From assembly GCA_963666515.2 (NCBI GenBank), contig OY762897.2, positions 3,904,001 through 3,968,000 of the forward strand: DNA of 64,000 nt, in the 5' to 3' direction. The translations under genes were made by a program, and so were the position numbers. This DNA is from Candidatus Binatia bacterium. GTDB lineage: Bacteria > Desulfobacterota > Binatia > UBA9968 > JAJDTQ01. The notes beneath the pieces were generated by a model. It was not told the DNA's origin. It worked only from the letters and a program-made list of their open reading frames with translations, and searched no databases. Below, piece by piece: positions 26,001-61,379 of the stretch (its first letter is position 1; each line of letters starts with the position of its first letter).

Positions 26001-26655
26001 GGCGGAGGAGGAGCGGGAGCGGATGGCGGAGCGGTTGGCGGCCGTGGGAGTGGGCTGGATGACCGCGCAGCAGGGACTGGCGGCGTTGGACCGGCTGTTG
26101 CGCGCGGGAACGGCCACCAGCGTGGCGGCGCTGGTGGACTGGGGGGTGTACGGAGGGCGCGTGACGGAGGCGCCGCCGTTTCTGGAGGAGCTGTTGGCCG
26201 CGGCCGCGGGCGGCGGCCCGGAGCCGGCACTGGACCTGCTGGACCGGCTGCGGGAGGCGCGCGCCTCCAAGCGCGAGGAGCTGCTGCTGGGATTCGTGCA
26301 GGCGGAGCTGCGGGCGGTTCTGCAGTCGTCATCCCTGCCGGCCCCGGACGTGGGCTTTTTCGATCTCGGCATGGACTCGTTGATGGCGGTGGAGTTCCGC
26401 AACCGCCTGAACCACGGACTGGCGGGGGCCCACGTCCTGTCGAGCACCGCGGTGTTCAATCACGCCAGCCCGCAGGCGCTGGCCCGCCATCTGGCCGGGG
26501 TGCTGGGCGATCCCGGCGACGGCGCCGGAAGCTCCGCCGCCGGGAGCACGGCTTCGCCGGTTCCCGCTCCGGACCCGGAGATGGAGGCGGTGCAGGGTCT
26601 GTCGGAAAGCGATCTTTTCGAAGAGGCGCTGCGTGAGCTCGGAGAGGACGAATGA
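8020..26655 (+). CDS. Trimodular type I PKS (6211 aa): [KS-AT-DH-KR-ACP]-[KS-AT-KR-ACP]-[KS-AT-DH-cMT-ER-KR-ACP] (modules 1-3)
   Basis: Three KS (DTACSSS), three AT (GHSVG; HAFH, HGFH, HGFH), two DH (HRVFG), one MT (LEVGAGTGG ~23245), one ER ([10 protein letters not shown] ~24895), three KR and three GMDSL ACPs (~13700, ~18465, ~26370). GAGG upstream of the ATG; N-terminal docking helix. Confidence 0.97.
9397..9448. repeat. CGTC-tagged REP-like palindrome, long nested form, KS-AT linker of module 1
   Basis: CGTCATTCCGGCGAAA-AGCCTGCCCCGTACTTGATACGGG-GCCGGAATCCAG; inner hairpin GCCCCGTA-CTTGA-TACGGGGC; encodes [17 protein letters not shown]. Confidence 0.8.
19954..20005. repeat. CGTC-tagged REP-like palindrome, long nested form, KS-AT linker of module 3
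   Basis: Identical to the 9397-9448 copy. Confidence 0.8.
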
Positions 26656-44600: not shown

Positions 44601-47183
44601 GGGGCGTTGTCGGGGCACGGGAGCGGGGCGGGATCAGCGGAGTTGGCGGCGGACGTGGAGCGCGGGACGGGAAGCGCGTTGGCGCTGGCGCAGGGACTGG
44701 TGGACGCGGGCATCGAGCCGAGCGGGGGCATGTGGCTGGTGACGCGGGGGGCGCAGGTGGTGGACGGCGAGCGCGCGGGGGAGTTGTCGGGGTCGGCGCT
44801 GTGGGGGCTGGGAAAGACGCTGGCGCTGGAAGCGGGACAACTGAAGCCCCGGCTGGTGGACCTGGACCCGGAAGATGAGACCGGGAGTGGAGTGTTGGTG
44901 GAGGAATTGCTGCATCCGGACCGGGAGACGGAGGTGGCGTATCGGGGCGGCAGCCGGCGGGTGCTGCGCTTGGTGCGGGCTGGAACGCGGCTGGTGCTGC
45001 CGGAGGGAGCGGATTGGCGGCTGGTTTCGGGTGCGGACGGACTGTTGGAGAGCGTAAGGGCGGAGCGGGTTCCGGCGCGGGCTCCGGGGTCCGGGGAGTT
45101 GCGGGTGGCGGTGGAGGCCGCGGGACTGAACTTTCGAGACGTGATGATGGCGCTGAAGCTGGTGGACGTGGATGCTTCCCTGGGAGGCGAGTTTTGCGGG
45201 CGGGTGCTGGATGTGGGAGCGGACGTGACAGGCTTCTCGGCCGGCGACCGGGTGGTGGGCTTCGCTCCCGGTGGGTTGGGGCCGGAGGCGGTGACGCGAG
45301 CGGAGGTGGTGGCGCGGGCGCCGGCGGGGATGACGCCGGCGGAGTTGGCGACGGTTCCGGTGGTGTTCACGACGGTGGCGCTGGCGTTCGAGTTGTCGGG
45401 TCTGAAGGGTGGGGAGCGGGTGCTGGTGCACGCAGGTGCGGGGGGAGTGGGTTTGGCGGCGATCCAGATGGCGCAGAGTCTGGGGGCGGAGGTGTATGCG
45501 ACGGCGAGTGCGCCGAAGCGGCGTTACCTGGAGTCGCTGGGGGTGGCGGAAGTGTTCGACAGCCGGAGCACGCGGTTCGGGGAGGACGTTCTGGGGGCGA
45601 CGGGTGGAGAGGGCGTGGATGTGGTGCTGAACAGCCTGACGGGGGAGGGCTTCATCGAGGCGAGCCTGTCGTGCCTGAAGGAGGGGGGGCGGTTTGTGGA
45701 GATCGGCAAGCGGGGGATATGGAGCGAGGAGGGGATGAGGAAGGCGCGTCCGGACGTGGACTACCATGTATTGGCGCTGGACCGATTGCTGGAGGCGGAG
45801 CCGGGGCGAGTGGGCAGGGTGTTGCGGGGAGTGACGGAGCGGGTGGGAGCGGCGGAGCTGCAGCCGTTGCGGCGGAGCGTGTGGGGAATGGGAGAGGCGG
45901 TGGAGGCGATGGAGTACATGAGTTCGGGGCGTCACGTGGGCAAGCTGGTGCTGCGTGTATCGTCCGGAGGGCTGCGGGAGGACGGGACGTATCTGGTGAC
46001 GGGGGGGCTGGGGGGCATCGGGTTGGAGTTGGCAGGGTGGCTGGCGGACCACGGGGCGCGGAGCATGGTGTTGAACGGCCGGCGTGAGCCGGAGGGGGCG
46101 GCGATGGCGGCGGTGGAAGCATTGCGGGAGCGGGGAGTGGATGTGCGGGTGGAGTTGGCGGACGTGGCGGACGGGGACGCGGTGGCGGCGATGCTGGAAC
46201 GGATGGACCGCGAGTTGCCGCCTCTGGCGGGGGTGTTCCACAGCGTGGGTGCGTTGGCGGACGGGGCGTTGGGGAATCAGGACTGGGGTCGGTTCGAGCG
46301 TGTGCTGTGGCCGAAGGTGTTGGGGGCATGGCATCTGCACCGTGCGACGGAAGCGCGGGAGTTGGACCTGTTCGTGCTGTTTTCGAGCGTGACGGGGGTG
46401 TTGGGGAACGCGGGACAGGCGAACCATGCGGCGGCGAATGCGTTTTTGGACCAGTTGGCGCGGCATCGGCGGGCCTTGGGTCTGGCGGGGCAGTCGATCG
46501 CGTGGGGGGCATGGTCGGGGGTGGGCGAGGCGGAGGAGCAGCGGGAGCGGATCGGGGAGCGGCTGGCGGCCTCGGGAGCCGGCTGGATGACGCCGCGGCA
46601 GGGACTGGGGGTGTTGGAGCGGGTGGTTCGTGGGGGCGAGGCGACGAGCGCGGCGATGCTGGTGGACTGGGAGTTGTATGGGGCGGGGCCGCGGGACGTG
46701 CCGCCGTTGCTGGAGGAGCTGGTGACGGTGGCCGCGGCCGGAGTTGGTGAAGAGGAGCGAAGGGGGGCGCTGTTGGAGCGGTTGCGTGGGGTACGCGCGC
46801 CGGAGCGGGAGGGGCTGCTGCTGGAGTTCTTGCAGCGGGAGTTGCAGGCAGTGCTCCATATGCCGTCGTTGCCCGCCGCGGGGGTCGGCTTTTTCGATCT
46901 GGGGATGGACTCGTTGATGGCGGTCGAGTTCCGCAACCGGGTGAACCGCGGTCTGGCAGGGGTGACGGCGTTGGCGAGCACCGCGGTGTTCGATCACGCG
47001 AGCCCGGAGGCGCTGGCCCGGCATCTGGTCCGGGAGTTGGGAGTGCACGACGGTCCGGGAAGCTTTTCTGCCGAGGAAGATGCTTCCTCCGTGTCTGACC
47101 TGGAAACGGAGAGAGTTCAAGGTCTGTCGGAGCAGGAGTTCCTGAAAGAAGCATCGCGAGTGCTGGGAGAGGATCATGAGTAG
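26652..47183 (+). CDS. Trimodular type I PKS (6843 aa): [KS-AT-DH-cMT-KR-ACP]-[KS-AT-DH-ER-KR-ACP]-[KS-AT-DH-ER-KR-ACP] (modules 4-6)
   Basis: ATGA overlap with the upstream stop. KS DTACSSS / DTVCSSA / DTACSAS; AT GHSVG x3 (HGFH, QGFH, HGFH); DH HRVFG x3; one MT (~31390); ER x2 (~38740, ~45420); KR x3; ACP GMDSL x3 (~33530, ~40220, ~46905). Confidence 0.97.
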   Translation: MNKYVELSRKLLGELKVRKRRISEFTQPVAVVGLACRFPGGDGLEGFWRLLESGGDAVTEARGKPIGGGMAVYGETRGEGSPAHWGGFVEGVDLFDAEFFRIAPVEARLLDPQQRLLLETSWQALESAAIDPGGLKGSRTGVYAGIASHDYADLMVASGETDSGSVYIATGNTGSTAIGRVAFALGLEGPAVAVDTACSSSLVAVHQAVSGLQRGEADLALAGGVNVLLSPLVTETFRNGGMLSPDGRCKTFDASADGFVRGEGCGVVVLKRLADAEAAGDRIWGVVRGSAVNHDGASAGLTVPNGLAQERVIGDALKQAGVEPSEVDYLEAHGTGTELGDPIEVDAAAAVYGAGRDPAQPLLLGSVKTNIGHLETAAGVAGLIKVLLSMNHGVIPRHLHFRQPNPHVDWDRLPVRVVSEPEAWPRHEGRPARAGVSSFGFSGTNAHVVVEGYGAVAAAGPRHSGEEPVPYLVRGENTAEESGGAGPRHSGESRNPVAGGAGPAVAVGWPEGASEFRPAKGSGGVTGARERRLLALSGRTEEALHALAGRYVEWLEERAELLTPVEGGGEGLSGRELLADMAWTAGVGRSHLGHRAGLTFGEVGELREKLALLAGGSVEVSRVRGRGGAPKVGFLFTGQGSQWAGMGRDLYEGEPVFRAVLDRCEEEVKRLRGESLLEVMFEAGQGPELDHTRWTQPALYALEAGLAALWRSAGVRPAAVLGHSVGEIAAAYAAGVLTLEEGMRLAARRGELMGSLPVDGPRAGSMAAVFGSAGRVEELVAEVNEAVRGGIPGTEGDPPFAGEALSVAGYNGGHVVVSGLTGAVEELVERSRVAGLRAERLRVSHGFHSGLMEPVLDELAGLLEGVEARAPEVELVSNVTGAVLGSGERMDGSYWRRQAREPVAFSAGVAALAGLGVEVLVELGPGPVLGRMAALAWPAEGRGQGDEASSGPGSRSPVVVTSLSGRMAGGGTAGRDAGFPEAVAEVYSAGVDLSFAGLFAGEERRRVSLPGYPFQRQRYWAEPPRRRRRVGEANHPLLGERRDSAGGETTFETELYASEPEWLRDHRVFGQVAAPGAIYGAMALSAAALAGGTRPVAGGVAVEDMEMHAPLLLPGGNGKGGEPGRAVQVVVSAAGESGRREVKIYSKGDEEEKWTLHAAAQTAGAVEEAMAGEAVDVEGLKEELGADEAAEFYRAVGKMGVELGPSFRTVTGLWTGPGEAVGEVRLREGLANGETGLHPVLLDGCFQVLGAALSAGAMGADEEGEEGDTGEQEAVYLPFGWERLWIRGDLKEGVTCRARVRGGGEKGEAGEVATADLWLYGESGEMVGEVRGLALKRASRGAFLSVGVRTEELLYVPEWREAPYEGEVKGASFLKPPEEAVRGGGSVSEHLEGAGVTVAGVRELQGELERVARGYAARALEELGWRREAGEEVSEDELRERLGVVKDQEHLFGRVLWLAAEAGLLERVEGERGRWRVPAGSSGEMGEEGLRDPGGLASRLVERHGRVVEVEAGLLSRCGGSLAEVLQGRTEPLGLLFAEGDSGAAELYGEAPVSRAMSDLLAGVLGSAVSGLPEGRVLRVLEVGAGTGGTTRAVLERLPAGEFEYEYTDVSAWFFAGARERFEEWGEAMEYRVLDLEGEPGEQGFEEHGYDVVLAGNVLHATRDIVATLRRCQWLLAPGGLLVAQEGLRRQGLWDLTFGMLAGWWRFVEGGDGYREESPLMGGDEWRGALREAGYEDVAVVGEAEGLDYGVIVARSPEEAAETGGVWVLSSDAGVEGLELAKELSERKQRVLLAVDEKWGQEGEADAAGVEVFRLEQRSRESWRSLLEGVVGEGGGVRGVVHVGGMSGQGEGAGSEEMAADVRESLGSGLALVQGLLDAGVEPGDGLWLVTRGGQVLGGEGGGELIGSVMWGFGRTLWWEAGQLRARLVDLDPAEPGSGFGVLADELLNPDREREIAYRGGVRQVLRLARVGRAGKAAGEGGLLRGDGTYLVTGGMGGIGLEVAGWLADHGARSMVLNGRREPEGAAMVAVEALRERGVDVRVELADVADGDAVAAMVERMDRELPPLAGVFHSVGVLADGALGNQDWGRFERVLWPKVLGAWHLHRATEARELDLFVLFSSVTGVLGNAGQANHAAANAFLDQLARHRRALGLAGQSIAWGAWSGVGEAEEQRERIGERLAASGAGWMTPRQGLGVLERVVRGGEATSVATMMDWESYGAGPRDVPPLLEELVTVSGVGEGASRAGELLDRVREAAASEREGLLLEFVQGELQEVLQTRSLPAAGVGFFDLGMDSLMAVDFRNRLNRGLGGAVVLSSTVVFDHGSAAALARHLAEELGVREVSEGVLRRRRVVGGGEDGIAVVGMACRFPGGGGVDGFWRLLDSGGDAVTNGRVNPPGGPYGVVASGDGPSIRWGGFIEDVELFDAEFFRIAPVEARLLDPQQRLLLETSWEALESAGIDAGRLRGSPTGVYAGISNNDYAEVVTREDAVSPYMVTGNSGATAIGRVAFTLGLEGPAVAVDTVCSSALVAVHQAVLGLQRGDADLALAGGVNVLLSATVTESVVRAGMLSPDGRCKTFDASADGFVRGEGCGMVVLKRLRDAEADGDRIWGVIRGSAINHDGASAGLTVPNGSAQERVIREALRRAGLESWEVDYLEAHGTGTELGDPIEIHAAAAVYGAGRDGAQPLRVGSVKTNVGHLEAAAGVAGLMKVLLSMNHGVIPKHLHFREPNPHVDWERLPLRVASEPEVWPRREGRPARAAVSSFGVSGTNAHVVVEGYGDAAGPEEDRLPGGPAVAVGWPEGASEYRPAEGAGGVTGARERRLLPLSGHTEKALRALAARYAEWLEERAGLSSSADTDGGDSGPAGADPLADVAWTAAVGRSHHGRRAAVTFGGAEELREKLAGLAAGGSASEAAVGARAVGESGEVRKVAFLFTGQGSQWAGMGRELYRREPVFCAVLDRCEEAFRGLRGESLLAVMFGEGGDRGSLDDTRWTQPALYALEAGLAALWGSVGVRPAAVLGHSVGEIAAAYAAGVFSLEAGMRFAARRGELMGSLPAAGPDAGAMAAVFAPAAGVEALVAAVNVEMGSERLGMAAYNGAHQVVSGLAGAVEAMLERCAREGVRAERLRVSQGFHSVLMDPILDELEGLLAGVDVTGPAVALVSDVTGGVLPAGEAMDGAYWRRQAREPVAFGAGVAALAGMGVDVLVELGPRPVLGGMAALAWPVEEGGGNVSGEPGARFGGPVVLTSLKGRGGGGGDGSSDGGFVEAVGGAYASGLALGFEGLFVGEERRRVSLPGYPFQRQRYWADAPRRRRRAGGLEHPLLGERRELPGGETTFETELYATEPAWLSEHRVFGQVAAPGAMYGAMALSAASLTGGSRYGSVTGGGVAVEEVQIHAPLVLPEGEGDGDEPGRTVFVAVAAMEAGGSRPVKIYSKGEDEKEWTLHAEARTGGGDAVRQAPARLDVEALKKGLSELDTAEFYRGFAAAGVEFGGSFRTVQGLWRGPGEAVGDVCLGEGWKDGEAGLHPVLLDGCFQVLGAALGAGAEEEGRGTAAGGATYLPFGWERLWVEGEMPERVTCHARVCGVDGGGDGGDEGKGSPAEVVTADLCLYGDDGRLVGEVSGLVLKRASRSAFLSGAVRTEDLLYAPVWRKAGLEGEVREADFLVSPAEAEEESGLWVLSSDDDGEGLSLAEELAGRNQRVVLAVGEGAAGVEGPGVRGVEVVGLDMRSRGGWHRLLEGLPEEARLRGVVHLGALSGHGSGAGSAELAADVERGTGSALALAQGLVDAGIEPSGGMWLVTRGAQVVDGERGGELSGSALWGLGKTLALEAGQLKPRLVDLDPEDETGSGVLVEELLHPDRETEVAYRGGSRRVLRLVRGGTRLVLPEGADWRLVSGADGLLESVRAERVPARALGSGELRVAVEAAGLNFRDVMVALRLVDLDASLGGEFCGRVLEVGAEVTGFSAGDRVVGFAPGGLGPEAVTRAEVVARAPAGMTPAELATVPVVFTTVALAFELSGLKGGERVLVHAGAGGVGLAAIQMAQSLGAEVYATASAPKRRYLESLGVAEVFDSRSTRFGEEVLGATGGEGVDVVLNSLTGEGFIEASLWCLKEGGRFVEIGKRGIWSEEGMRKARPDVDYHVLALDRLLEAEPGRVGRVLRGVTERVGAAELQPLRRSVWGMGEAVEAMEYMSSGRHVGKLVLRVSSGGLREDGTYLVTGGLGGIGLELAGWLADHGARSMVLNGRREPEGAAMAAVEALRERGVDVRVELADVADGDAVAAMVERMDRELPPLAGVFHSVGVLADGALGNQDWGRFERVLWPKVLGAWHLHRATEARELDLFVLFSSVTGVLGNAGQANHAAANAFLDQLARHRRALGLAGQSIAWGAWSGVGEAEEQRERIGERLAASGAGWMTPRQGLGVLERVVRGGEATSVATMMDWESYGAGPRDVPPLLEELVTVSGVGEGASRAGELLDRVREAAASEREGLLLEFVQGELQEVLQTRSLPAAGVGFFDLGMDSLMAVDFRNRLNRGLGGAVVLSSTVVFDHGSAAALARHLAEELGVREVSEGVLRRRRVVGGGEDGIAVVGMACRFPGGGGVDGFWRLLDSGGDAVTNGRGTQAGGGRTGQVLEGSWTGWGGFIEDVELFDAEFFRIAPVEARLLDPQHRLLLETSWEALESAGMDTGRLKGSRTGVYAGISGNAYGSLAAVVKEESANLYLATGNSGATAIGRVAFTLGLEGPAVAVDTACSASLVAVHQAVSGLRTGDADLALAGGVNVLLSLGAEEFSVEGMLSPDGRCKTFDASADGFVRGEGCGMVVLKRLRDAEADGDRIWGVIRGSAINHDGASAGLTVPNGSAQERVIREALRRAGLESWEVDYLEAHGTGTELGDPIEIHAAAAVYGAGRDGAQPLRVGSVKTNVGHLEAAAGVAGLMKVLLSMNHGVIPKHLHFREPNPHMDWERLLVRVASEPEAWPRREGRPARAAVSSFGISGTNAHVVLEEYGEAAGPEEDRLPGGPAVTVGWPEGTDEGRPEANGGMGTAERARRVLALSGRTEGAVRELAGRYVEWLEERAGLLSPVDAECERGASSGRELLADMAWTAGVGRSHHGCRAGLTFGEAGELREKLAGLASGSDAGPGVSTARETGGAPKVGFLFTGQGSQWAGMGRDLYEGEAVFRAVLDRCEEEVKRLRGESLLAVMFGEGGDRGSLDDTRWTQPALYALEAGLAALWGSVGVRPAAVLGHSVGEIAAAYAAGVFSLEAGMRFAARRGELMGSLPDAGPAAGAMAAVFAPAAGVEALVAVVNGEMGSERLGMAAYNGAHQVVSGRAGAVEEMLERCAREGVRAERLRVSHGFHSVLMDPILEELEGLLAGVDVTAPAVALVSDVTGGVLPAGEAMDGAYWRRQAREPVAFGAGVAALAGMGVDVLVELGPRPVLGGMAALAWPVEEGGGNVSGEPGARFGGPVVLTSLKGRAGGDGDGSSDGGFVEAVGGAYASGLALGFEGLFVGEERRRVSLPGYPFQRQRYWADAPRRRRRAGGLDHPLLGERRELPGGETTFETELYATEPAWLSDHRVFGQVAAPGAMYGAMALSAASLAGGSRYGSVTSGGVAVEEVQIHAPLVLPEGEGDGDEPGRTVFVAVAAMEAAGSRPVKIYSKGEDEKAWTLHAEARTGGGDAVRQAPARLDVEALKKGLSELDTAEFYRGFAAAGVELGGSFRTVQGLWRGPGEAVGDVCLGEGWKDGEAGLHPVLLDGCFQVLGAALGAGAEEEGRETAAGGATYLPFGWERLWVVGEMPERVTCHARVCGVEAGGDGGDEGEGSPAEVVTADLWLYGDDGRLVGEVSGLVLKRASRSAFSSGAVRTEDLLYAPVWRKAGFEGKVREADFPVSPAEVEEESGLWVLSSDDDGEGSALAEELAGRNQRVVLAVGEGAAGVEGPGVRGVEVVGLDMRCRGGWHRLLEGLPEEARLRGVVHLGALSGHGSGAGSAELAADVERGTGSALALAQGLVDAGIEPSGGMWLVTRGAQVVDGERAGELSGSALWGLGKTLALEAGQLKPRLVDLDPEDETGSGVLVEELLHPDRETEVAYRGGSRRVLRLVRAGTRLVLPEGADWRLVSGADGLLESVRAERVPARAPGSGELRVAVEAAGLNFRDVMMALKLVDVDASLGGEFCGRVLDVGADVTGFSAGDRVVGFAPGGLGPEAVTRAEVVARAPAGMTPAELATVPVVFTTVALAFELSGLKGGERVLVHAGAGGVGLAAIQMAQSLGAEVYATASAPKRRYLESLGVAEVFDSRSTRFGEDVLGATGGEGVDVVLNSLTGEGFIEASLSCLKEGGRFVEIGKRGIWSEEGMRKARPDVDYHVLALDRLLEAEPGRVGRVLRGVTERVGAAELQPLRRSVWGMGEAVEAMEYMSSGRHVGKLVLRVSSGGLREDGTYLVTGGLGGIGLELAGWLADHGARSMVLNGRREPEGAAMAAVEALRERGVDVRVELADVADGDAVAAMLERMDRELPPLAGVFHSVGALADGALGNQDWGRFERVLWPKVLGAWHLHRATEARELDLFVLFSSVTGVLGNAGQANHAAANAFLDQLARHRRALGLAGQSIAWGAWSGVGEAEEQRERIGERLAASGAGWMTPRQGLGVLERVVRGGEATSAAMLVDWELYGAGPRDVPPLLEELVTVAAAGVGEEERRGALLERLRGVRAPEREGLLLEFLQRELQAVLHMPSLPAAGVGFFDLGMDSLMAVEFRNRVNRGLAGVTALASTAVFDHASPEALARHLVRELGVHDGPGSFSAEEDASSVSDLETERVQGLSEQEFLKEASRVLGEDHE
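28035..28140. repeat. Two REP-like palindromes in tandem (degenerate long copy + intact short copy), KS-AT linker of module 4
   Basis: CGTCACTCCGGCGAAGAGCCTGTTCCGTACTTGGTACGGGGCGAGAAT at 28035, then CGTCATTCCGGCGAAAGCCGGAATCCAG at 28113-28140. Confidence 0.78.
32671..46729 (+). repeat. Tandem module-scale duplication, period ~6.68-6.69 kb
   Basis: 32671-33829 matches 39361-40519 (offset 6690) almost base for base. ~35570-40048 matches ~42250-46729 (offset 6681) with scattered SNPs. The KR is present in three near-identical copies (32671, 39361, 46042). Confidence 0.92.
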
Positions 47184-50100: not shown

Positions 50101-53100
50101 GAGCGGCGGGATTCGGCCGGCGGCGAGACGACGTTCGAGACGGAACTGTACGCGTCGGAGCCGGGGTGGCTGCAGGACTACCGGGTGTTCGGGCAGGTGG
50201 CGGCGCCGGGGGCGCTGTACGGAGTGATGGCGCTGAGCGCCGAGGCGCCGCCGGAGGAGCCGCGGTCCGGCGGCAGCGGCGCCGCGGTGGAGGACATGCA
50301 GATGCACGCGCCGCTGGTGTTGCGGGGCGGGCGTGGGGAAGAAGACGATGAGCCGGGGCGCACGGTGCAGGTGGTGGTGAGCGCGGCCGAGGGGTCGGAG
50401 CCGCGTGAGGTGAAGATCTACAGCAAGGCGGACGAAGAGGAGAAGTGGACGCTGCACGCGGAGGCGCGGACCGCAGGGACGGTTGAAAAAGCCGGGGCGG
50501 TCGAGGCGGTGGACCTGGAAGGGCTGAAGGAGGGGCTGGAGGAGAAAGAGCCGGCGGGGTTCTATCGCGCGGCCGGGGAGATGGGCGTGGAGTTCGGGGC
50601 GTCGTTTCGGACGGTGACGGGGTTGTGGACGGGGGAGCGGGAGGCCGTGGGCGAAGTGAGGTTGGGGGACGGGCTGGGGGGGGCGGAGGGGGACCTGCAC
50701 CCGGCTCTGCTGGACGGGTGCTTCCAGGTCCTGGGAGCGGCCTTGGGGGCCGGAGCCAGGGAGGACGGAAGCTCCGGGCAAAAAGCGCCGGCGATGTACC
50801 TGCCGTTCGGGTGGGAGCGGCTGTGGATACGGGGCGGTCCGATGGAGGAGGTGACGTGCCGTGCGCAGGTGCGGGGAGGCGGGGAGAACGGCGTAGCGGA
50901 GGTGGTGGCCGCGGACCTGTGGATGTATGGGACGGGTGGGGAGTGCGTGGGGCTGGTGAAGGGACTGGCGCTGAAGCGGGCGAGTCGGAGTGCGTTCCTG
51001 TCCGTGGGAGTGCGGACGGACGATCTGGTGTACGTGCCGGAGTGGCGGGAAGGCGCAAGGGGCGTGGCGCAGCCTGCGGAGGAAGAAGCGGCGCCGGCCG
51101 GCGAGGGAAAGTGGGTGCTGTCGTCGGACGCCGGGCAGGAGGGGCTGGGGTTGGCGAAGGAGCTGGCAGGGAGGGATGAGCGGGTGTTGCTGGCGGTGGA
51201 AGACGGCTGGGGACATGAGGCGGAGGCGGAAGCCGCTGGAGTGGAGGTGGTCCGGCTGGACCTTCGGAGCCGGGAGAGCTGGCGCGGGCTGCTGGAAGGC
51301 GTCGTGGAGGAGGGCGGCGGAGTACGCGGGGCGGTTCACCTGGGAGGGATGAACGGACACGGAGCAGCGGCGGACGGGGAGGAGTTGGCCGCGGACGTGG
51401 AGGCCGCGCTGGGGAGCGGTCTCGGGCTGGTGCAGGGGCTGCTGGACGCGGGGGTGTCGCCCGAGGGGGGCGTATGGCTGGCGACGCGCGGCGGGCAGGT
51501 GTTGGGCGGGGAGGCCGGAGAAGGGTTGAGCGGCTCGGTGATGTGGGGATTCGGGAGGACTCTGTGGCGGGAGGCGAGGCGGTTGCGGGCACGCCTGGTG
51601 GACCTGGACCCGGCGGGTGGTGAAGCAGGGGGGATGGAGGAACTGGCGGAGGAGCTTCTGGCCCCGGACCGGGAGCAGGAGATTGCGTATCGCGGGGGAG
51701 TACGGCGTGTGCTGCGGCTGGCGCGTGCGGGACGGGTGGGGAAGGAGAGCGGCGGTGAGGGGGCGCTGTTGCGCGGGGACGGGACGTACCTGGTGACGGG
51801 TGGATTGAGGGGGATCGGGCTGGAGGTGGCGCGTTGGCTGGGCGATCAGGGGGCCGGGAAGATCGTGTTGAACGCCCGGCGGGAGCCCGGCGCGGAGGCG
51901 CAGGCGGTGATCGAGGAGTTGCGGGGCCGGGGCGTGGAGGTGCGGGTGGAACTGGCGGACGTGACGGACGGGGATGCGGTGGCGGCGATGGTGGAGCGCG
52001 TGGAGGAGGAGATGGGGCCTCTGGCCGGAGTGATTCATGCCGCCGCGGTGTTGTCGGACGGGGCGCTGAAGAACCAGGACTGGGAGCGGTTCGAGCGGGT
52101 GTTGTGGCCCAAGGTGAAGGGGGCGTGGCATCTGCACCGTGCGACCGCGGGACGGGAGCTGGACCTGTTCGTGCTGTTCTCGAGCGTGGCGGGGCTGATG
52201 GGGAACCCGGGCCAGTCGAGCTACGCCGCGGCCAACGTGTACCTGGACCAGTTGGCGCGTTGCCGTCGCGAGATGGGACTGGCGGGACAGTCGATCGTGT
52301 GGGGTGCGTGGTCCGGAGTGGGCCTGGCGGAGGCGTGGCGGGAACTCTTGAGGGAGCGGATGGCGGCCGCGGGAATGGACTGGATGACGCCGCGGCAGGG
52401 ACTCGGGGTGCTGGAGCGGGCTATACGGGGGGGCGAAGCGACCATCGCGGCCATGCCGGTGGACTGGGAGCTGTTCGCGGCCGCGGCGAAGGACGTGCCG
52501 CCGCTGCTGGAGGACCTGGTGACGGCTGCGGCAGGCGTTGGCGGCGGGGAGAGTCCGGCGGGTCAGGCGGGAGCATTGGTGGAGCGGCTGCGCGCGGCGC
52601 GGCCTGCGGACCGGGAGGGGATGGTGCTGGCGTTCGTGCAGCGTGAGCTGCAGGCCGTGCTCCAGGCGCCTTCTCCGCCGGCGCCCGCAGCGCGGTTTTT
52701 CGAGCTGGGCATGGACTCGCTGATGGCGCTGGAGTTCCGCGAGCGCCTGAACCGCGGTCTGGGCGGTGCCTGCGAGGTGTCGGGCACCGCAGTGTTCGAC
52801 CACCCCAGCCCCGAGGCGTTCGCCCGCCACCTGGTAGCGGAGCTGGGGTTGGTGGTGGAAGAGCCGCGGCCGTTGCCGGCGCCGCGGCGCCGGGCGGCGG
52901 CGCGTGGGGAGGACGCGGTAGCGGTGGTGGGGATGGCGTGCCGTTTTCCCGGAAGCCCGGACCTGGCGAGTTTCTGGCGTCTCCTGGAAGCGGGCGGCAA
53001 TGCGGTGACCGCCGGCCGCCCGGAGGTTTCGGCGGAACCGCCGGTCCCGGACGAAAGGTTCTGGGGCGGCTACATCGAGGACGTGGACCTGTTCGATGCC

Positions 53101-55539: not shown

Positions 55540-55572
55540 TTTCCGGGTAAACGGGACAGGGGAGGAACTGCC

Positions 55573-57135
55573 ATGGAGATGGGCCTGCTTTCCGGTTTGA
55601 TTCAATTGAGCTGCCTCCCGGCCTGGCGGCGGTTCGAACAGGCGACCGCAGACCCGGACCGCGCGCAGCGGGAGGCCTGGGAGCGCATTCGCCGCAAGTG
55701 CCGGCAGGCTCCCTACTGGCGGGAACGGTGGGGCGGGCGAAGCGCGCCGCCGCTGGCGGATTTGCCGGTCACCGATTACGCCGATTACGAGGCCGCTTTC
55801 GACGAGGCGTTCGAGGGCGGTCTCTCTCCCACTACGGGTGAAGCCATTGTGAGCTGGCTGGTCAGCAGCAACAGCACCGGGAAGGCGAGCAAGCGTTATC
55901 CCCTGTATGCGGACCACGAGCGACGGCTGAAGGCTGCTTGGGAAACGTGTCTCTACTCCATGGCCGTGACCGTGCCCGACATTCCGCTGCAGCCGGTCCT
56001 TTCCCCATACTCGGCCAACAACGAGGCGCCGTCGCCCGCGGGCGTGCCCGTTCACCGGGTCACCGAGAAGTGGATGGGCTTGTTGCTCGGCGGCGGGCAG
56101 TCCGGGAACCTGTTTCCGCGAGAATTGGTTGCGAGGCCGGACTTGTGGGACGAGTGGGCGCCGCTCTATGCCGTTGCCGGCGACGCAAGCATGGCGGCGG
56201 CCATTACCGCGGACCGCATCGCGGTCATGCGCGAGGAGGTGGTCGCCGGCATGGACCGCTGGTGGCCCTATCTGGAGGGGCGGTCAGCCCCGCCGCCGCC
56301 GTTGCCGCCCATCCGGGTATCCACGGAACGCCTGAACCACCTGCGATCCGTTTTCGCCGGCGCGCCGCCGGGCATGCGCCGGATATGGCCGAGCATGAGG
56401 GTCGTGTCGTGCTGGACCGTCGCGAGCGCCGGCGCCGCGGTGCCCCTGCTGGAGCCGTGGCTTGAAGGCGTGCGTCTGCTCGGCGGGCCTTATTCGACCG
56501 CTGAAAGCGGACCGGTCACCGCCCCCCTTTTCGACGGCGAGGACGGACACCCGGTCAATCCGGACGTCAACGTTACCGAGTTGCTCCCCGAAGGCGCCGA
56601 GCCTGAGCCCCGCAACGTGATCCCGCTGTCCCAGGCCGAGGCGGGGCGGCGGTACGAGTTGATCGTGACCACGCCCGGCGGCCTGATCCGCTATCGCACG
56701 AGCGACGTCTTCGTCTGCGACGGATTCCATCGCCGCATGCCGCGGCTGACTTTCTGCTCCAAGGTGGCGTTTTCATTGAACGTGTCCGAGACCGTGCGTC
56801 TGCCTGAGGACGCCGTGGTCAAGCTGCTGATGGAGCATGGATACCGTTTGCAGGACGACCTGATGCTGGGCCCCCATCCCACCGGAAGAGCCATTGTCAT
56901 GTACATCAAGGAGGGCTCGGGCCACAGGCCCGCGGGCGACGCCTTCGATCGCGGCTTGTGCGAGTTGTCCGCCGACTATGCGGCCAAGCGGCGGCAAGGA
57001 CTGCTCCGATACGTCCACAACATGGTCGTCCCCGCGGCGCACCCGATGTGGGCGCGGCCGGGCCTGGCCAAGGCGCGCTACGTGCTTCCCGAAGCCCCGG
57101 AGGACCTGGGGGTAGGGGCCACCGTCAGGGGGTAG
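55573..57135 (+). CDS. GH3-family (auxin-responsive GH3-like) acyl-adenylate-forming ligase / acyl-acid amido synthetase
   Basis: 520 aa; the three GH3/ANL motifs occur in order: SSNSTGKASK (P-loop-like), YSTAE (YxSSE-like) and YELIVTTPGGLIRYRTSD (YRxGD-like), plus N-terminal LPVTDYADY. GGAGG RBS; 33 bp after the PKS stop. Confidence 0.82.
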   Translation: MEMGLLSGLIQLSCLPAWRRFEQATADPDRAQREAWERIRRKCRQAPYWRERWGGRSAPPLADLPVTDYADYEAAFDEAFEGGLSPTTGEAIVSWLVSSNSTGKASKRYPLYADHERRLKAAWETCLYSMAVTVPDIPLQPVLSPYSANNEAPSPAGVPVHRVTEKWMGLLLGGGQSGNLFPRELVARPDLWDEWAPLYAVAGDASMAAAITADRIAVMREEVVAGMDRWWPYLEGRSAPPPPLPPIRVSTERLNHLRSVFAGAPPGMRRIWPSMRVVSCWTVASAGAAVPLLEPWLEGVRLLGGPYSTAESGPVTAPLFDGEDGHPVNPDVNVTELLPEGAEPEPRNVIPLSQAEAGRRYELIVTTPGGLIRYRTSDVFVCDGFHRRMPRLTFCSKVAFSLNVSETVRLPEDAVVKLLMEHGYRLQDDLMLGPHPTGRAIVMYIKEGSGHRPAGDAFDRGLCELSADYAAKRRQGLLRYVHNMVVPAAHPMWARPGLAKARYVLPEAPEDLGVGATVRG

Positions 57136-57144
57136 AGGCGGCCG

Positions 57145-58059
57145 TCACGAATTCATGAGCCCGTTTCGTTCGAGAAACTCGCGCACGGCGGCGGCGCATT
57201 CCGCGGGCTTTTCCAGTTGAGCGAAGTGGGTCGTTTCCGGGATGAAATCGTATTCCAGCGTCATGATTTCGCTGAGATCGAACGTCGGCAGGTATGAGAA
57301 CGGTATCGTCGGATCGGCGCCGATGATTTTGGTCGGTTGCCGCAACCCCTGAAAGTCCACCATGCTCGAGAGAATCAAGGCGTATTCCATGACCTGCGCC
57401 TCGTATGCGGGAGGACACCGGAGCACGTAACGATCGCCGCTTTTGCGCAGCAGGGTCTCCGCCGCAAGATCGAAGAGTCCGGGGACCGTCTGCGTGAAAA
57501 CTTTCCGGTAGGGAAAGTCCTCCATGAAGTCTTCGATGGACTCGAACTGTTCCCGGCGGTTCCGGAGCATTGAAGCCACCAATTTGAAGGTGAAGTCATA
57601 GGCTTGAGGGTCCGCCTGATTCAGTTTGTGGCCAACGGGCGGATCGAACAGAATGCCGGCTGCAGGCTGGTTGTCTCCGTTGGCCGACAACAGCCATGCG
57701 AGAGCCGAGAGGGAATGGAATATGGCTGTTTTCGGTTTCTCCCCGAAGAGCCGGTCGACGGCCTCGAACACAACCACATTGTCTCGGACATACGCCATGA
57801 GGTTGTGATCTTCGATGGGGCCCACGGGATTCCAGCCGTGGTTTCTGAGATCGTAAACGATCAGGTCGAAGTCGTCTGCGAGCAGGGACCAGAAGGGAAA
57901 GTAGAGATCCACGGCCAAGCCGTTGCCGTGGCAAACGAGCAGCCGCGGTCCCCTGGGATTCCCATGGCGACGCAGAAAAATTACCGTGGCCGGATCCGGT
58001 CTCACCTCGCAGACCGATTCCGGCTCCGGTATCCGCCATCGTCGATTCTGCGTTGTCAC
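57145..58059 (-). CDS. Alpha/beta-fold hydrolase (SupD/SupE-like; candidate thioesterase/acyltransferase)
   Basis: 304 aa; oxyanion CHGNG, YDLRNHG, nucleophile elbow FHSLS, C-terminal catalytic His in THFAQLE. GTG start with a weak RBS, so the start is uncertain. Confidence 0.88.
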   Translation of the reverse strand: MTTQNRRWRIPEPESVCEVRPDPATVIFLRRHGNPRGPRLLVCHGNGLAVDLYFPFWSLLADDFDLIVYDLRNHGWNPVGPIEDHNLMAYVRDNVVVFEAVDRLFGEKPKTAIFHSLSALAWLLSANGDNQPAAGILFDPPVGHKLNQADPQAYDFTFKLVASMLRNRREQFESIEDFMEDFPYRKVFTQTVPGLFDLAAETLLRKSGDRYVLRCPPAYEAQVMEYALILSSMVDFQGLRQPTKIIGADPTIPFSYLPTFDLSEIMTLEYDFIPETTHFAQLEKPAECAAAVREFLERNGLMNS

Positions 58060-58144
58060 GCTGTCGGCCGAGGCGTCAGGTCAGCTGCACAATGTCGGCG
58101 TCTTTCCGTCGCGAGCCGTCCGAGCACGCGACGGTAGCGCCCGA

Positions 58145-58387
58145 TCAACTGGCGTTGGCTTCGAGGTAGTTGATCACATCCCTCATGCACGAGAACTTCA
58201 CGAGATCGTCGGGAAGAATCGTCACGTTGAACTCCTTGTTGACAAGGATTATGAACGAGACGAGTGCCGACGAACTGATCTGGGCGTCATCGAAACTGGA
58301 GTCCAAATCCATGTTGCTTTTGGCTTCCACTTCTGAGGCAAAGTGCTCTCTCGCCAGAGATTTGACGCGCTCTTCAACGGTGGCCAT
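58145..58387 (-). CDS. Stand-alone acyl carrier protein (SupB-like), 80 aa
   Basis: ATG at 58387 preceded by [19 protein letters not shown]...SFDDAQISSSALVSF...VNKEFNVTILPDD...MRDVINYLEAN fits the ACP four-helix pattern; the Ppant site is ISS instead of DSL. The ORF-track start at 58555 is an over-extension. Confidence 0.85.
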   Translation of the reverse strand: MATVEERVKSLAREHFASEVEAKSNMDLDSSFDDAQISSSALVSFIILVNKEFNVTILPDDLVKFSCMRDVINYLEANAS

Positions 58388-58412
58388 GATTTCTCCTCCC
58401 TCACTGGTTGGT

Positions 58413-58436
58413 ATGGATACCGAATCTGGTATCCAT
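58413..58436. promoter_or_regulatory. Perfect inverted repeat in the divergent ACP/dioxygenase intergenic region (candidate operator)
   Basis: ATGGATACC-GAATCT-GGTATCCAT in an AT-richer 190-bp divergent spacer. Confidence 0.45.
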
Positions 58437-58577
58437 GTTTCCCGATATGAAGCGATGACAAACACAAAGGAAGCATAAAACTGTTCGGGATGCAAGGGTT
58501 CCCGCTTGCTTGTGAATCTGCCCAATTGCGATATGCTGGTCACTATGGACCTCAACCTCTGAAGGAAGGAGCAGGTG

Positions 58578-59537
58578 ATGAGCAGTCATCCCTTCGACAA
58601 CGAGTTCCTCGTCACCGGCGAGCACAGGGAGAAATTCCGGCGCGACGGCTTCGTCAAGCTGGAAGGGTTCTTCAACGCCGCCGTGGTCAACACGCTGCTC
58701 GACCGTGTCGAAGTCGAAATGGGCCGGGCGGCTCCATCGAGCACGGCTTCCGATTTTCTGTTCAGTCGAGTGCGGTACGACTTCAAGAGCGAAAAGGCCG
58801 ACGTCTATGAGCTGCTGGAACGGCCCTACTTCCGGCGGGCTCTGACGGACCTGGTCGAACGCGACCTCTTCCTGACCTTCGAAGTGTGCTTCGAGATTGA
58901 AAAAAAACGCCAAAAGGGGTTTCCATGGCATGTTGACCTGCAGAGTTTCGGCTACCAGGTCGCAACCGAGCACGCGTGCTCGCTGTGGACGCCGCTGCAT
59001 TCCATCGATCCGAAGGGGCAGCGGGGCGGGATGGCTTATGTCCCCATGAACGTCGTATCGGGTGATTTCACCTACCAGGTCGAGCGAGCCATCGTGTCGA
59101 CGGTGGAGGCCAAGGAGCGAGCCGGGGTCAGGACGAACATGCTCGAGTTCGCTGCGTTGAATGCGGGGATACTCAATTCGCCGACCATGGTCGAGATATT
59201 CGAGAACCACCAGGTCGAAGACGACTTCGAGCCCGGCGACGTGCTCCTGTTCAACAAACTGGTCGTCCATCGAAGCATCATGCTCGGTGAGGGACCCCTT
59301 TCCAGGCGCGCCGCCTACACGATGCGTTTCGTCGATGCCGGGTCGCACTATAGTCTGCAGGGGGCGCGGGATCTCGAATTCCCGGTGGAAATGTACGGGA
59401 AGGCGCCCATTCCGTATAAACCGGTTACACGCCAACACATAGAAATCGCGGAAGCCGGGGCGCAGGACGGCGACGTTCTCGCGGAATGCGACTACTTCGA
59501 CAACCGCGATCGTCGCACGGTCCGGCGCGGTTCATAG
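58578..59537 (+). CDS. Fe(II)/2-oxoglutarate-dependent dioxygenase, PhyH (phytanoyl-CoA hydroxylase)-like
   Basis: FRRDGFVKLEGFF N-terminus, WHVD (HxD), CSLWTPL, EPGDVLLF, VVHRS (distal His), RRAAYTMRF (2OG-binding Arg). AAGGAG RBS before ATG 58578. Confidence 0.85.
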   Translation: MSSHPFDNEFLVTGEHREKFRRDGFVKLEGFFNAAVVNTLLDRVEVEMGRAAPSSTASDFLFSRVRYDFKSEKADVYELLERPYFRRALTDLVERDLFLTFEVCFEIEKKRQKGFPWHVDLQSFGYQVATEHACSLWTPLHSIDPKGQRGGMAYVPMNVVSGDFTYQVERAIVSTVEAKERAGVRTNMLEFAALNAGILNSPTMVEIFENHQVEDDFEPGDVLLFNKLVVHRSIMLGEGPLSRRAAYTMRFVDAGSHYSLQGARDLEFPVEMYGKAPIPYKPVTRQHIEIAEAGAQDGDVLAECDYFDNRDRRTVRRGS

Positions 59538-61202
59538 CTGCTCGGATGGCGCTTGGGCAGCTTGTCGAGGCTCTTCAGGCTCTCCAGTCGCTCCTTCCAG
59601 GTCCGGCCTCCTCAGGAACAGCGCCGCCGCCACCGACAGCGCCGCGGCCGCGGCGATCACCATGAACGCCTCGCCCACCGCCCCGGACAGGGCGGACACG
59701 AGAGAGTCGAGCAGCATGTCGGCTACGCCGCCGGCGTGTCCGGCGGCCTCCAGGTCGGCGCCGAGCGCATCCCTGGCGGCCGGATCCATCACCGCCCGCG
59801 GCTCGGCCGTCAGGGCGTCGAGGCCGCCCGGCGGGAGCGCCGCCCTGACCGCGTCGGGGAGCGCCGTCTCCAGCCTCCGCGAGAATCCGTTCGCCATCAC
59901 CGCGCCCATGACGGCAAGGCCCAGCGTGGCCCCGATGGATCGGGAGAACTGAAGCGTGGCGGTGGAGGCCCCCACGAGACTGTAAGGCACCGAGTTCTGA
60001 ACCCCCACGTTCATGGTCGCCAGCGTGCCGCCCACGCCGAGGCCGAGGACCGCGACGTACGACGCGGCCCGCCAGAGGCCGGCATCCTCCCCCAGGGTGA
60101 CGAGAAGAAACGCGCCAGCGGCCGTGATCCCCGTGTTCACCAGCGCTTCCACCCTGTAGTGGCGGCGCTCCCCGCTGAGCCGGCGTCCCGCCAGCGCGGC
60201 CCCCAGCAGCACCGCCAGCAACATGGGGGTCATGAACACGCCGCTGCGGGCGGCCGAAGCGCCGAGCACCGCCTGGAAAAACAGGTTGGTGAAAATGATG
60301 CTCCCGTACAGCACCATGCCGGTCAACAGCAGCACCGCGGCCCCGGCGCTCACCATCGGGTTGCGGTATATCTCCAGCGGCATGATCGGCGAGCGCGCCC
60401 TGGACTCGACGGCCACGAAGGCTGCGGTCATGGCCAGTCCGAAGGCCATGAGGCCGATCACCTCGGCCGAGGTCCAGTCGTATTGGACCCCACCCATTGA
60501 AAACGCCAGCAGCAACGGCACCACGGCCAGTGTGAGGCACGCCGTTCCGGGATAGTCCAGGCCGCGGTGCTCGACCTCGGACGCGATGGCCGGGAACGTT
60601 CGTGCGATCAGCGCGAGCACCACCAGCGCCGCGGGCACGTTGAACAGGAAGATCCAGTGCCACGAAAAGGCGTCGGTGATGAGCCCGCCCAGAACCGGCC
60701 CTATCGCCACGGCCACGCCCAGCACCATCGCGCCCAGCCCCTGAGCCTTGCCCCGTTCCTCCGGCGGAAACAGGTCGGCCACCGCCACGAGGCTGTTGGT
60801 CGCCAAGGTGCCGCCGCCGATGCCCTGGATGGCGCTGGCGGCGATGAGCTGGGTCATCGACTGGCTCGTGCCGGCTGCCAGGGCGCCGATGATGAAGACG
60901 GCCAGGCCGAGCATGAAGAAGAGCCGGCGCCCGTACATGTCGGCAAGCCTGCCCACGATCGGCACGGCCACCGCGGCCGCCACCAGGTAGGCGGTGGACG
61001 GCCAGGTATAGCGGTCGAACCCGCCCAGTTCGGCGACGATGCGGGGCAGCGCCGTGGACAGGACGGTCTGGGCCAGGGTGGACAGGAACAGCGCAAGCAA
61101 CACGCCGGTCGTCGCCCACCGAAGCTGCGCCCCGGAGAGCCTTGCGCGGTCCGCGGCCACCGGCGGATCGCCGCCAGGTTGCTCTTCATCGCGTCGTTGC
61201 AT
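59532..61202 (-). CDS. MFS drug:H+ antiporter, DHA2 (EmrB/QacA) family
   Basis: Many hydrophobic segments; QTVLSTALPRI (motif D1 region), GRLADMYGRR (motif A), QGIGGG, GPVLGG (motif C), WHWIFLFNVP. Likely ATG at 61202 with GAGGG upstream. Stop overlaps the dioxygenase stop. Confidence 0.92.
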   Translation of the reverse strand: MQRRDEEQPGGDPPVAADRARLSGAQLRWATTGVLLALFLSTLAQTVLSTALPRIVAELGGFDRYTWPSTAYLVAAAVAVPIVGRLADMYGRRLFFMLGLAVFIIGALAAGTSQSMTQLIAASAIQGIGGGTLATNSLVAVADLFPPEERGKAQGLGAMVLGVAVAIGPVLGGLITDAFSWHWIFLFNVPAALVVLALIARTFPAIASEVEHRGLDYPGTACLTLAVVPLLLAFSMGGVQYDWTSAEVIGLMAFGLAMTAAFVAVESRARSPIMPLEIYRNPMVSAGAAVLLLTGMVLYGSIIFTNLFFQAVLGASAARSGVFMTPMLLAVLLGAALAGRRLSGERRHYRVEALVNTGITAAGAFLLVTLGEDAGLWRAASYVAVLGLGVGGTLATMNVGVQNSVPYSLVGASTATLQFSRSIGATLGLAVMGAVMANGFSRRLETALPDAVRAALPPGGLDALTAEPRAVMDPAARDALGADLEAAGHAGGVADMLLDSLVSALSGAVGEAFMVIAAAAALSVAAALFLRRPDLEGATGEPEEPRQAAQAPSEQL

Positions 61203-61260: not shown

Positions 61261-61379
61261 TACCCGACTGAAAATCCCTTGCCTATTGCTCCTCTTGCTT
61301 CATCTTCCGTCCGCTTTATGCGACAGTGGGGGTAAGATCAGGTGCGAAAATTTCTGAAGCGTCCGCACGGGGATATCAA

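Follow-up and report, generated by a model that had tools for sequence, protein, structure and literature searches.

The window analysed here, a stretch of 64,000 nt (G000:C1:3904001-3968000) from a Candidatus Binatia genome of 4.67 Mb (two contigs, 65.8% G+C, 98% complete), carries part of a large modular polyketide synthase (PKS) cluster together with the genes that follow its last PKS gene, PKS4. Four PKS genes on the same strand (window -16835 to 55539) encode proteins that together have about 24,100 aa and 12 ketosynthase (KS) domains, and the assembly line ends in a KS fused to an inactive acyltransferase (AT0), next to genes for a GH3-family ligase, a serine hydrolase, a discrete acyl carrier protein (ACP), an oxygenase of the BtnX family and an efflux pump (Table 1). 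The ending formed by KS-AT0, discrete ACP and hydrolase is a conserved device and is not peculiar to this locus, and the PKS is an unusually large member of the sup-like family. The name sup stands for 'sponge symbiont ubiquitous', and among the PKS genes of sponge microbiomes the sup-like ones rank with the most abundant; to our knowledge, the products and the release chemistry of these enzymes have never been shown, and they have been orphans since their discovery in sponge metagenomes. The explanation that we favour, with a probability of roughly 0.4, combines a sup-like line with a split terminal module, release of the chain as a free acid, hydroxylation at C2, conjugation by the GH3-type ligase and export.

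In the proposed pathway, a fatty-acyl-AMP-ligase-like (FAAL-like) protein would prime the loading ACP, and eleven malonyl-type modules, four of them with a C-methyltransferase (cMT), would build a long, methyl-branched, partly reduced lipid chain, as the domain map suggests. The line would end in a split last module with an intact KS and, fused to it, an AT that is dead, shortened and perhaps no more than a scaffold. Most likely, condensation at the terminal KS joins the chain to a malonyl unit on the discrete ACP, which another AT would load in trans; the Ser-Asp-His hydrolase would next release a carboxylic acid, perhaps once fatty-acid-synthase enzymes have reduced the chain; the BtnX-type enzyme would hydroxylate C2 of the free acid; the GH3-type ligase, in the least certain step, would activate the acid by adenylation and couple an amine to it; and the DHA2 pump would export the product. 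The architecture of the termination is shown by the gene and domain map, and the chemistry is what this architecture would imply.

The KS-AT0 ending and its sup-like relatives

A first-pass annotation of this DNA had described a line ending in a KS and a dead AT with no thioesterase (TE), and the domain map agrees. Besides its altered active-site motif, GHGVG, the terminal AT0 is shortened: it aligns with an active AT at positions 1-120 and 208-294 only, and the distance from the serine site to the linker is 210 aa, compared with 260-290 aa in the 11 active ATs. After the last AT of PKS4, the Pfam domain map shows neither an ACP nor a TE, reductase or condensation (C) domain, and the thioesterase family PF00975 had no match across the whole 98%-complete genome, the same search being positive in 9 of 14 control genomes. 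The presence of the hydrolase, the free ACP, a dioxygenase with the PhyH fold and a DHA2 exporter, also reported in the first-pass annotation, was borne out by Pfam and TIGR00711. The hydrolase and ACP genes converge on the GH3 gene, and the oxygenase gene diverges from the ACP gene.

The same genome holds a second locus of this kind outside the window. Its PKS, of 3418 aa, has the order KS-AT-DH-cMT-ER-KR-ACP-KS-AT0, with a last AT that reads GRDLG and is shortened, while its hydrolase and ACP are 58% and 34% identical, respectively, to those of the window. These hydrolase and ACP paralogues, located at 2.388-2.389 Mb, are kept in most genomes of the genus, as indicated by a DNA search of the genus. 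More widely, the hydrolase family comprises 2522 homologues, and hydrolase loci occur in at least 580 species-representative genomes, from phyla that include Nitrospirota, Latescibacterota, Chloroflexota, Acidobacteriota, Gemmatimonadota, Nitrospinota, Pseudomonadota, Thermodesulfobacteriota, and Actinomycetota. Judged from the record names, many of the hydrolase-bearing genomes look like sponge-metagenome bins. An alignment of 16 hydrolase sequences had a mean column identity of 73%, with His115-Ser116, Asp249 and His278 invariant in all 16; searched against solved structures, the hydrolase profile found weak, generic alpha/beta hydrolases only (best E 1.7e-4), which gave no functional hint.

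The neighbourhoods of the best 80 of the at least 580 hydrolase loci, whose hydrolases are 51-58% identical to that of the window, were surveyed within 10 kb by tblastn (E <= 1e-6) with window-derived queries. KS was matched at 74 of the 80 loci, AT at 75, cMT and ER at 66 each, ACP at 33 (a weak count, as the query is short), and a BtnX-like gene at two, while GH3, major facilitator superfamily (MFS) and FAAL queries were matched at none. The usual arrangement is cMT ... KS-AT0-ACP-hydrolase, with all genes co-directional. The distance between the active-site motif and the post-AT linker had a median of 183 aa in Ser-less ATs (n=45) versus 261 aa in Ser-bearing ones (n=61), and Cys-His-His was retained in 57 of the 59 KS domains paired with a Ser-less AT. 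Because this triad is kept almost throughout the family, the terminal KS is probably a condensing enzyme, extending the chain as it moves to the free ACP, rather than a domain for transfer alone. The first-pass annotation had let the chain pass through the terminal KS to the free ACP; the ACP does belong to the terminus, as does the dedicated serine hydrolase, but simple transfer sits poorly with the retained triad, and the idea of a new offloading device has to be given up, given the recurrence of the KS-AT0, ACP and hydrolase set in this genome and across species genomes. That the three parts form a working sup-type terminus here is, in our judgement, highly probable. A comparable ending is found in the enacyloxin and polyether pathways, where the line also stops at a KS and the chain is handed to a stand-alone carrier protein before release; there, however, the KS is a transacylase and release is carried out by a condensation domain or other hydrolases, whereas the fully conserved triad of the window-type terminal KS points to a real extension step.

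The window cluster departs from the canonical form of the family in size. In all five complete genomes checked, the adjoining PKS was a single frame of 3436-3505 aa with exactly two KS, compared with 12 KS in four proteins here. A quick maximum-likelihood tree of 51 KS sequences with SH-aLRT support, in which the FabF outgroup sits on a long branch and for which the careful search is unfinished, placed all 12 window KS domains in one clade (support 97), sister to a clade with 19 of the 20 terminal KS domains (support 100; both together 99); first-module sup-like KS domains fell mostly outside this pair. From these sequences, the window PKS looks like a multi-module expansion within the sup-like family. 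The published description presents sup genes as small monomodular PKSs that are ubiquitous in high-microbial-abundance sponges and are proposed makers of mid-chain-branched (methyl-branched) fatty acids (PMC4245539). The window and the second locus fit the sup family, a label assigned from published description and not by sequence comparison, and no account of the sup gene order was found in the literature searched. The likeness consists in the one-module, methyltransferase-bearing PKS of about 3450 aa with two KS at the second locus and in the five checked genomes, in hosts from the same guild of sponge-type phyla known from metagenome-assembled genomes (MAGs), and in the grouping of the window KS domains with the terminal KS of one-module sup-like clusters in the quick tree. 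The differences are the FAAL-primed loading ACP, the four PKS proteins, the inverted ACP-hydrolase pair, the added GH3 gene and the added Asp-type BtnX-like gene.

The BtnX-family oxygenase and the GH3-family ligase

Oxidation of the chain by a PhyH-like enzyme had been proposed in the first-pass annotation; the enzyme indeed belongs to an oxygenase family acting on free acids, and its assignment is corrected here to the BtnX family. An alignment over residues 2-317 matches it to 'biotin halogenase BtnX' (PDB 9pv1; E 2e-126), and it also aligns with the CurA halogenase domain (E 1.6e-18); it keeps both iron-binding His residues as well as the Tyr, Gln, Ser, and Arg of the BtnX carboxylate site. 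At the position of BtnX Gly117, it has HVD where BtnX and CurA have HVG, so the Gly or Ala that makes space for halide at the third ligand position of HxG halogenases is replaced by Asp. According to the BtnX study (PMC13489965), BtnX halogenates the alpha position of biotin and of many free acids, fatty acids among them, grips the propionate head group through Tyr64, Gln119, Ser120 and Arg248, and has a 2-His-1-Gly iron site; in the G117D variant, halogenation was abolished and hydroxylation rose about 40-fold, which turned the enzyme into an alpha-hydroxylase. Because Asp replaces this Gly, the window oxygenase, at sequence level a natural counterpart of the G117D mutant, is predicted to be a hydroxylase-type relative of BtnX and not a halogenase, acting as an alpha-hydroxylase of free carboxylic acids; we lean towards hydroxylation of C2 of the released acid as its role. 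BtnX itself (Dinoroseobacter shibae Dshi_3684, PDB 9pv1/9q04) shares full-length homology, the iron-binding His and the carboxylate-site residues with the window protein, but its gene adjoins a biotin ECF transporter and that of the window a PKS terminus.

The residue at the halide site is Gly in 112 of the 120 listed BtnX-like homologues (P0298-P0417), Asp in six (the window's included), Glu in one and Cys in one. Both the Gly and the Asp state occur among the closest five homologues, and the family switches between them even between sequences that are 82-88% identical. All nine BtnX-like loci examined in species genomes were of the Gly type, four of them with the hydrolase within 10 kb; the two BtnX-like neighbours among the 80 hydrolase loci were also of the Gly type. 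At one locus (L138), KS-AT0, ACP, hydrolase and BtnX-like gene follow each other on one strand, with the BtnX-like gene directly after the hydrolase. BtnX-like genes are recurrent companions of sup-like termini, and beside some of these termini (loci L135-L137) they stand as two to three tandem copies. This companionship is the best evidence on the nature of the intermediate and favours a pathway that would pass through a free acid; release of such an acid by the hydrolase appears reasonably probable. The earlier scheme of release followed by oxidation and conjugation is likewise consistent with two neighbouring enzymes from families that act on free carboxylic acids.

The GH3 gene follows PKS4 closely, as had been noted in the first pass, and the strong ribosome-binding site recorded there corresponds to a Shine-Dalgarno sequence, GGGAGGA, at 55560-55566, 6 nt 5' of the ATG; a terminator scan of the junction found no terminator-like site, and the gene is probably co-transcribed with PKS4. 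Membership in the GH3 family is sound for the N-terminal and middle domains of the protein. The Pfam check against PF03321 (GH3) gave 45.9 bits and that against PF23571 (GH3_M) 49.7 bits, with a cut-off of 23.6 each, and the family profile found rice GH3.8 (E 6e-27) and JAR1 (E 1e-22) among solved structures, while no NCBIfam model matched and a pattern search based on this single protein gave no result. Lys107, Glu311, Tyr374, Arg375 and Asp378 are invariant among 18 homologues, in motifs that we take to be the nucleotide-binding elements known as the SSGT-type P-loop with its Lys, the YxSSE-type Glu, and YRxGD. Compared with the plant GH3 acyl acid amido synthetases (JAR1, GH3.8, GH3.12), the window protein resembles these enzymes in its N-terminal and middle domains and in three alignable nucleotide-binding motifs, but it is shorter (520 aa versus 575-613 aa), its C-terminal 110 residues or so are not recognised as GH3_C, and its P-loop contains an Asn.

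Homologues of the GH3 protein form 28 clusters at 90% identity, with 75 representatives at E <= 1e-30 and 1808 at E <= 0.001. Those with 41-48% identity come from MAGs of Acidobacteriota, Bryobacterales, Vicinamibacterales, Paracoccaceae, and Pseudomonadales. Of 122 other genomes of the order, 27 of them from the genus, 43 had a match at E <= 0.001, a tally that takes in the unpublished genomes G073, G051 and G093, which enter into no further claim made here; the matches listed within the order are 25-41% identical and mostly partial in length. In a sample of 400 genomes of the phylum, no match reached E <= 1e-30. Within the lineage of the window genome itself, these searches found no GH3 orthologue. 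Linkage between GH3 and hydrolase genes among homologues is limited to the two closest relatives. The frame of the 85% identical GH3 homologue (P0003) continues into DNA that is homologous, in antisense, to the 3' end of the window hydrolase gene, and both P0003 and a 91% identical hydrolase homologue (P0180) are on contigs of 420,587; similarly, the 69% identical GH3 homologue (P0004) and a 61% identical hydrolase homologue (P0183) are both on contigs of 7,334 nt. In each pair, co-location is inferred from the matching contig sizes.

The coupling of GH3 ligase and PKS that the first-pass annotation had put forward was not reflected in the surroundings of GH3 homologues; a lack of enrichment near PKS genes, which that annotation had itself named as counting against its proposal, is what all 25 of these loci show. 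At 25 readable GH3-homologue loci (8 at 41-48% identity, 17 more distant), KS, AT, ACP, hydrolase and BtnX-like genes were all absent, and a metagenome scan yielded one close GH3 locus, without a PKS. The eight close loci share other genes, as determined by blastp clustering with Pfam checks on representatives: an RND pump (7/8), a P450 (7/8) and an Acyl_transf_3-like gene (5/8). These loci (L002-L008 and L039) belong to several phyla, and in some of them the recurring P450 is fused to a GPP34 lipid-binding domain; at L002, a type III PKS adjoins the GH3 gene. The P450, Acyl_transf_3-like and RND set around GH3 homologues looks like an undescribed lipid or xenobiotic conjugation-export cassette.

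The first-pass annotation knew of no characterised PKS that uses a GH3 ligase in this way. GH3 genes are in print as occasional members of bacterial PKS clusters, with no function shown for them in that report (PMC5640695), and further reports were not found in the literature searched. The closest parallel is lol1 (lpg2225) of Legionella pneumophila, a GH3 gene of about 510 aa in the legionellol cluster, a polyketide/fatty-acid cluster which, as described (PMC5640695), has no chain-release enzyme and contains a free ACP and an MFS pump; it differs from the window in having discrete KS III enzymes and no modular PKS, and the two are likened by description.

Weighing the alternatives

Several observations weigh against the preferred explanation, the first of them against its GH3 step. 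In the GH3 protein, the P-loop reads SSNSTG, with Asn in place of a Gly of the family consensus SSGTTG, and the GH3 C-terminal domain (PF23572) was not detected by Pfam; among 28 homologues, this domain is carried by P0029 alone, and the C-terminal region of the window clade is conserved but different. The GH3 gene is missing from all 80 canonical hydrolase loci, its relatives of 41-48% identity keep the company of RND pump, P450 and acyltransferase genes at loci devoid of PKS parts, and in Legionella the lol1 knockout left the product unchanged (PMC5640695). Against a single coherent pathway, the ACP-hydrolase pair lies on the strand opposite to PKS4, with the GH3 gene in between, and is inverted relative to the canonical order. 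The G+C content at third codon positions (GC3) is 0.72 for the hydrolase, 0.71 for the ACP and 0.77 for the oxygenase, below that of the PKS genes (0.86-0.91; PKS4 0.86) and of the flanking genes (0.84-0.99 in GC3-filtered frames), and therefore this trio would have an origin separate from those of the PKS and of the GH3 gene (GC3 0.84); it might be a recent graft. The pump has a GC3 of 0.87. Finally, a condensing terminal KS yields a 3-oxoacyl chain while BtnX needs a propionate-type head group, so that an extra reduction must be assumed.

As an alternative, the GH3 gene would be a passenger, derived from the graft or from its usual P450/acyltransferase/RND setting, and ACP, hydrolase and oxygenase would finish the product alone. 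The absence of GH3 from canonical loci and of PKS parts from GH3-homologue loci, the usual neighbours of its close homologues, the ineffective Legionella knockout, the altered P-loop and a mosaic region, with an AcrB gene moved out of its operon and duplicate amidohydrolase genes, all point this way. A passenger would be harder to reconcile with the gap of 33 nt to PKS4 and the strong ribosome-binding site, with an intact frame and invariant catalytic motifs, with the hydrolase linkage kept on two further contigs (85% and 69%; co-location inferred) and with a GC3 close to that of PKS4, and we regard this account as unlikely, though it deserves more weight than any other alternative. We nevertheless hold only tentatively that the GH3 enzyme acts on the released acid, which is the weakest step of the preferred explanation. 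The need for reduction could also be met by delayed release, in which the terminal KS passes a 3-oxoacyl chain to the ACP, housekeeping fatty-acid-synthase enzymes extend and reduce it, the lipids go to membranes and the hydrolase is a late or editing thioesterase, a view that corresponds to the older sup proposal of mid-chain-branched fatty acids. The condensing triad in 57 of 59 terminal KS, combined with a dead AT, means that the ACP must be loaded in trans, no KR, DH or ER follows the last KS, and BtnX-type enzymes need a reduced, propionate-like head group (PMC13489965). After 11 extensions, however, the chain already far exceeds the length of membrane fatty acids, and a drug-type DHA2 pump adjoins the genes; delayed release therefore seems to us somewhat less probable still.

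GH3 proteins share adenylate-forming chemistry with ANL ligases, relatives of which load carrier proteins, and the GH3 enzyme could accordingly be pictured as an acyl-ACP ligase that adenylates an acid and, standing in for the dead AT, loads it onto the free ACP; the last unit added by the terminal KS would then be an unusual one. The inactive AT beside the terminal KS and the position of the gene between AT0 and the ACP-hydrolase pair agree with such a role; canonical loci do without a GH3 gene, however, and we know of no GH3 enzyme with a thiol acceptor, which makes it improbable. It is still less plausible that KS-AT0 is a decayed stump left after loss of the last module and TE, in a broken cluster with unrelated neighbours: the AT is dead and shortened, and the downstream genes differ in composition, but 57 of 59 family members, from many phyla, share the ending with its KS triad, which is also present at the second locus of this genome, the PKS frame of about 72 kb is intact, and ACP and hydrolase are family-specific partners of the KS-AT0 ending.

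While the terminus of the preferred explanation is not unique, the 12 KS domains in place of two, the inverted ACP-hydrolase pair and the GH3 gene are unusual. The value of the locus lies less in a TE-less PKS than in tying an abundant orphan PKS family to testable free-acid tailoring chemistry. It links the ending made of KS-AT0, free ACP and hydrolase to relatives of BtnX, an enzyme with a solved structure and assayed free-acid chemistry, predicts 2-halo or 2-hydroxy methyl-branched acids as product types, offers a natural Gly-to-Asp switch within the BtnX family, and gives bacterial GH3 ligases of an uncharacterised clade a defined context of candidate substrates; if the GH3 step is true, polyketide tailoring would gain its first bacterial GH3 enzyme. 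A broader version, in which sup-type PKSs release free methyl-branched acids via a split module, BtnX-type enzymes mostly halogenate and here hydroxylate C2, and the GH3 enzyme makes an amide lipid, would extend the scheme to the family and is, in our estimation, speculative and rather unlikely as a whole.

Layout and surroundings of the cluster

The domain map was obtained by searching the PKS proteins with the domains of PKS4 itself and then running Pfam on the gaps. The motif xAFH/xGFH, which we take to be malonyl-type, is present in 10 of the 11 active ATs. For the AMP-binding protein encoded directly 5' of PKS1, the top models are fatty-acyl-AMP ligases (E 1e-118), yet the scores are under their curated cut-offs. 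Two modules of PKS3 form a tandem duplicate of 6.7 kb (33511-40198 versus 40201-46882) with 93.8% nucleotide identity, which at sequence level shows a module duplication that appears recent or still under way; such a duplicate is also a spot prone to assembly errors.

Table 1. Features of the PKS cluster and related loci. Positions are those of the window unless indicated otherwise.
Feature	Position	Strand	Description
AMP-binding gene, FAAL-like	-18765..-16939		608 aa; directly 5' of PKS1
PKS1, 3' part	1..8004	+	8279 aa; start at -16835, outside window; loading ACP; KS-AT-cMT-psiKR-ACP; KS-AT-KR-ACP; KS-AT-DH-ER-KR-ACP; KS-AT-DH-cMT-ER-KR-ACP
PKS2	8020..26655	+	6211 aa; KS-AT-DH-KR-ACP; KS-AT-KR-ACP; KS-AT-DH-cMT-ER-KR-ACP
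PKS3	26652..47183	+	6843 aa; KS-AT-DH-cMT-KR-ACP; two KS-AT-DH-ER-KR-ACP
PKS4	47176..55539	+	2787 aa; KS-AT-DH-KR-ACP; KS-AT0 (Pfam: KS-AT-DH-KR-ACP-KS-AT)
Terminal KS	52912..54186	+	PKS4 residues 1913-2337; Cys, His, His intact
Terminal AT0	54598..55242	+	PKS4 residues 2475-2689; GHGVG for GHSxG, internal deletion, no xAFH/xGFH motif
PKS4-GH3 junction	55540..55572	+	33 nt; PKS4 stop 55537-55539
GH3-family (ANL-like) adenylating ligase, putative	55573..57135	+	520 aa; Pfam GH3_M, GH3
Alpha/beta serine hydrolase	57145..58059	-	304 aa; family-specific
Discrete ACP	58145..58387	-	80 aa; PP-binding 27.4 bits (cut-off 20.8)
BtnX-family Fe(II)/2-oxoglutarate enzyme (PhyH fold)	58575..59537	+	HxD motif; predicted alpha-hydroxylase
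DHA2-family MFS efflux pump	59532..61202	-	TIGR00711 234.2 bits (cut-off 230.2)
Two tandem Amidohydro_2 genes	61326-62441 and 62505-63593		after pump; 76% mutually identical
Second sup-like locus	G000:C1:2388023-2399581 (L052:8023-19581), outside window		PKS + ACP + hydrolase, one strand

Elsewhere in the genome, KS matches fall to the second PKS (2.39 Mb), to a third one (1.67 Mb) and to a frame of 432 aa at 4.51 Mb, which was taken to be FabF and served as the outgroup of the tree. Outside the window, a swf-like cluster (G000:C1:1665046-1677658, locus L134) contains genes for a 2347-aa KS-AT-DH-ER-KR PKS, a B12/radical-SAM protein, a reductase-sulfotransferase, and an AMP-binding protein. 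It resembles the published swf cluster, which represents the other sponge-specific PKS family (PMC3908369). This gives a genome that holds both PKS families described as sponge-specific, the sup-like and the swf-like.

Regarding the history of the region, import of the PKS genes from a high-GC donor was considered and is unsupported, as their GC3 overlaps that of the flanks and their high overall GC stems from the first and second codon positions. The region around the cluster is a mosaic, and synteny gave no island borders. An AcrB-type RND gene (G000:C1:3880268-3883340, window -23732..-20660) is situated about 20 kb 5' of the window and 4 kb 5' of the PKS cluster; it is absent here from its operon site at 1.1099 Mb, where it is still found in three relatives between the membrane-fusion gene and the next gene, and its displacement is due either to translocation or to an assembly error. 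The two Amidohydro_2 genes after the pump are probably unrelated to the PKS; the family has nine matches in the genome, and a copy at 2.14 Mb shares 91% identity with the first of the two window genes. Two ATPase genes of a kind typical of variable or defence islands lie in the interval from the displaced AcrB region to the PKS cluster, namely an AAA_21/AbiEii-like gene (L036:11839-13002, window about -20.2 to -19.0 kb) and an AAA_14/DUF4143 gene (L036:5928-7139, window about -26.1 to -24.9 kb).

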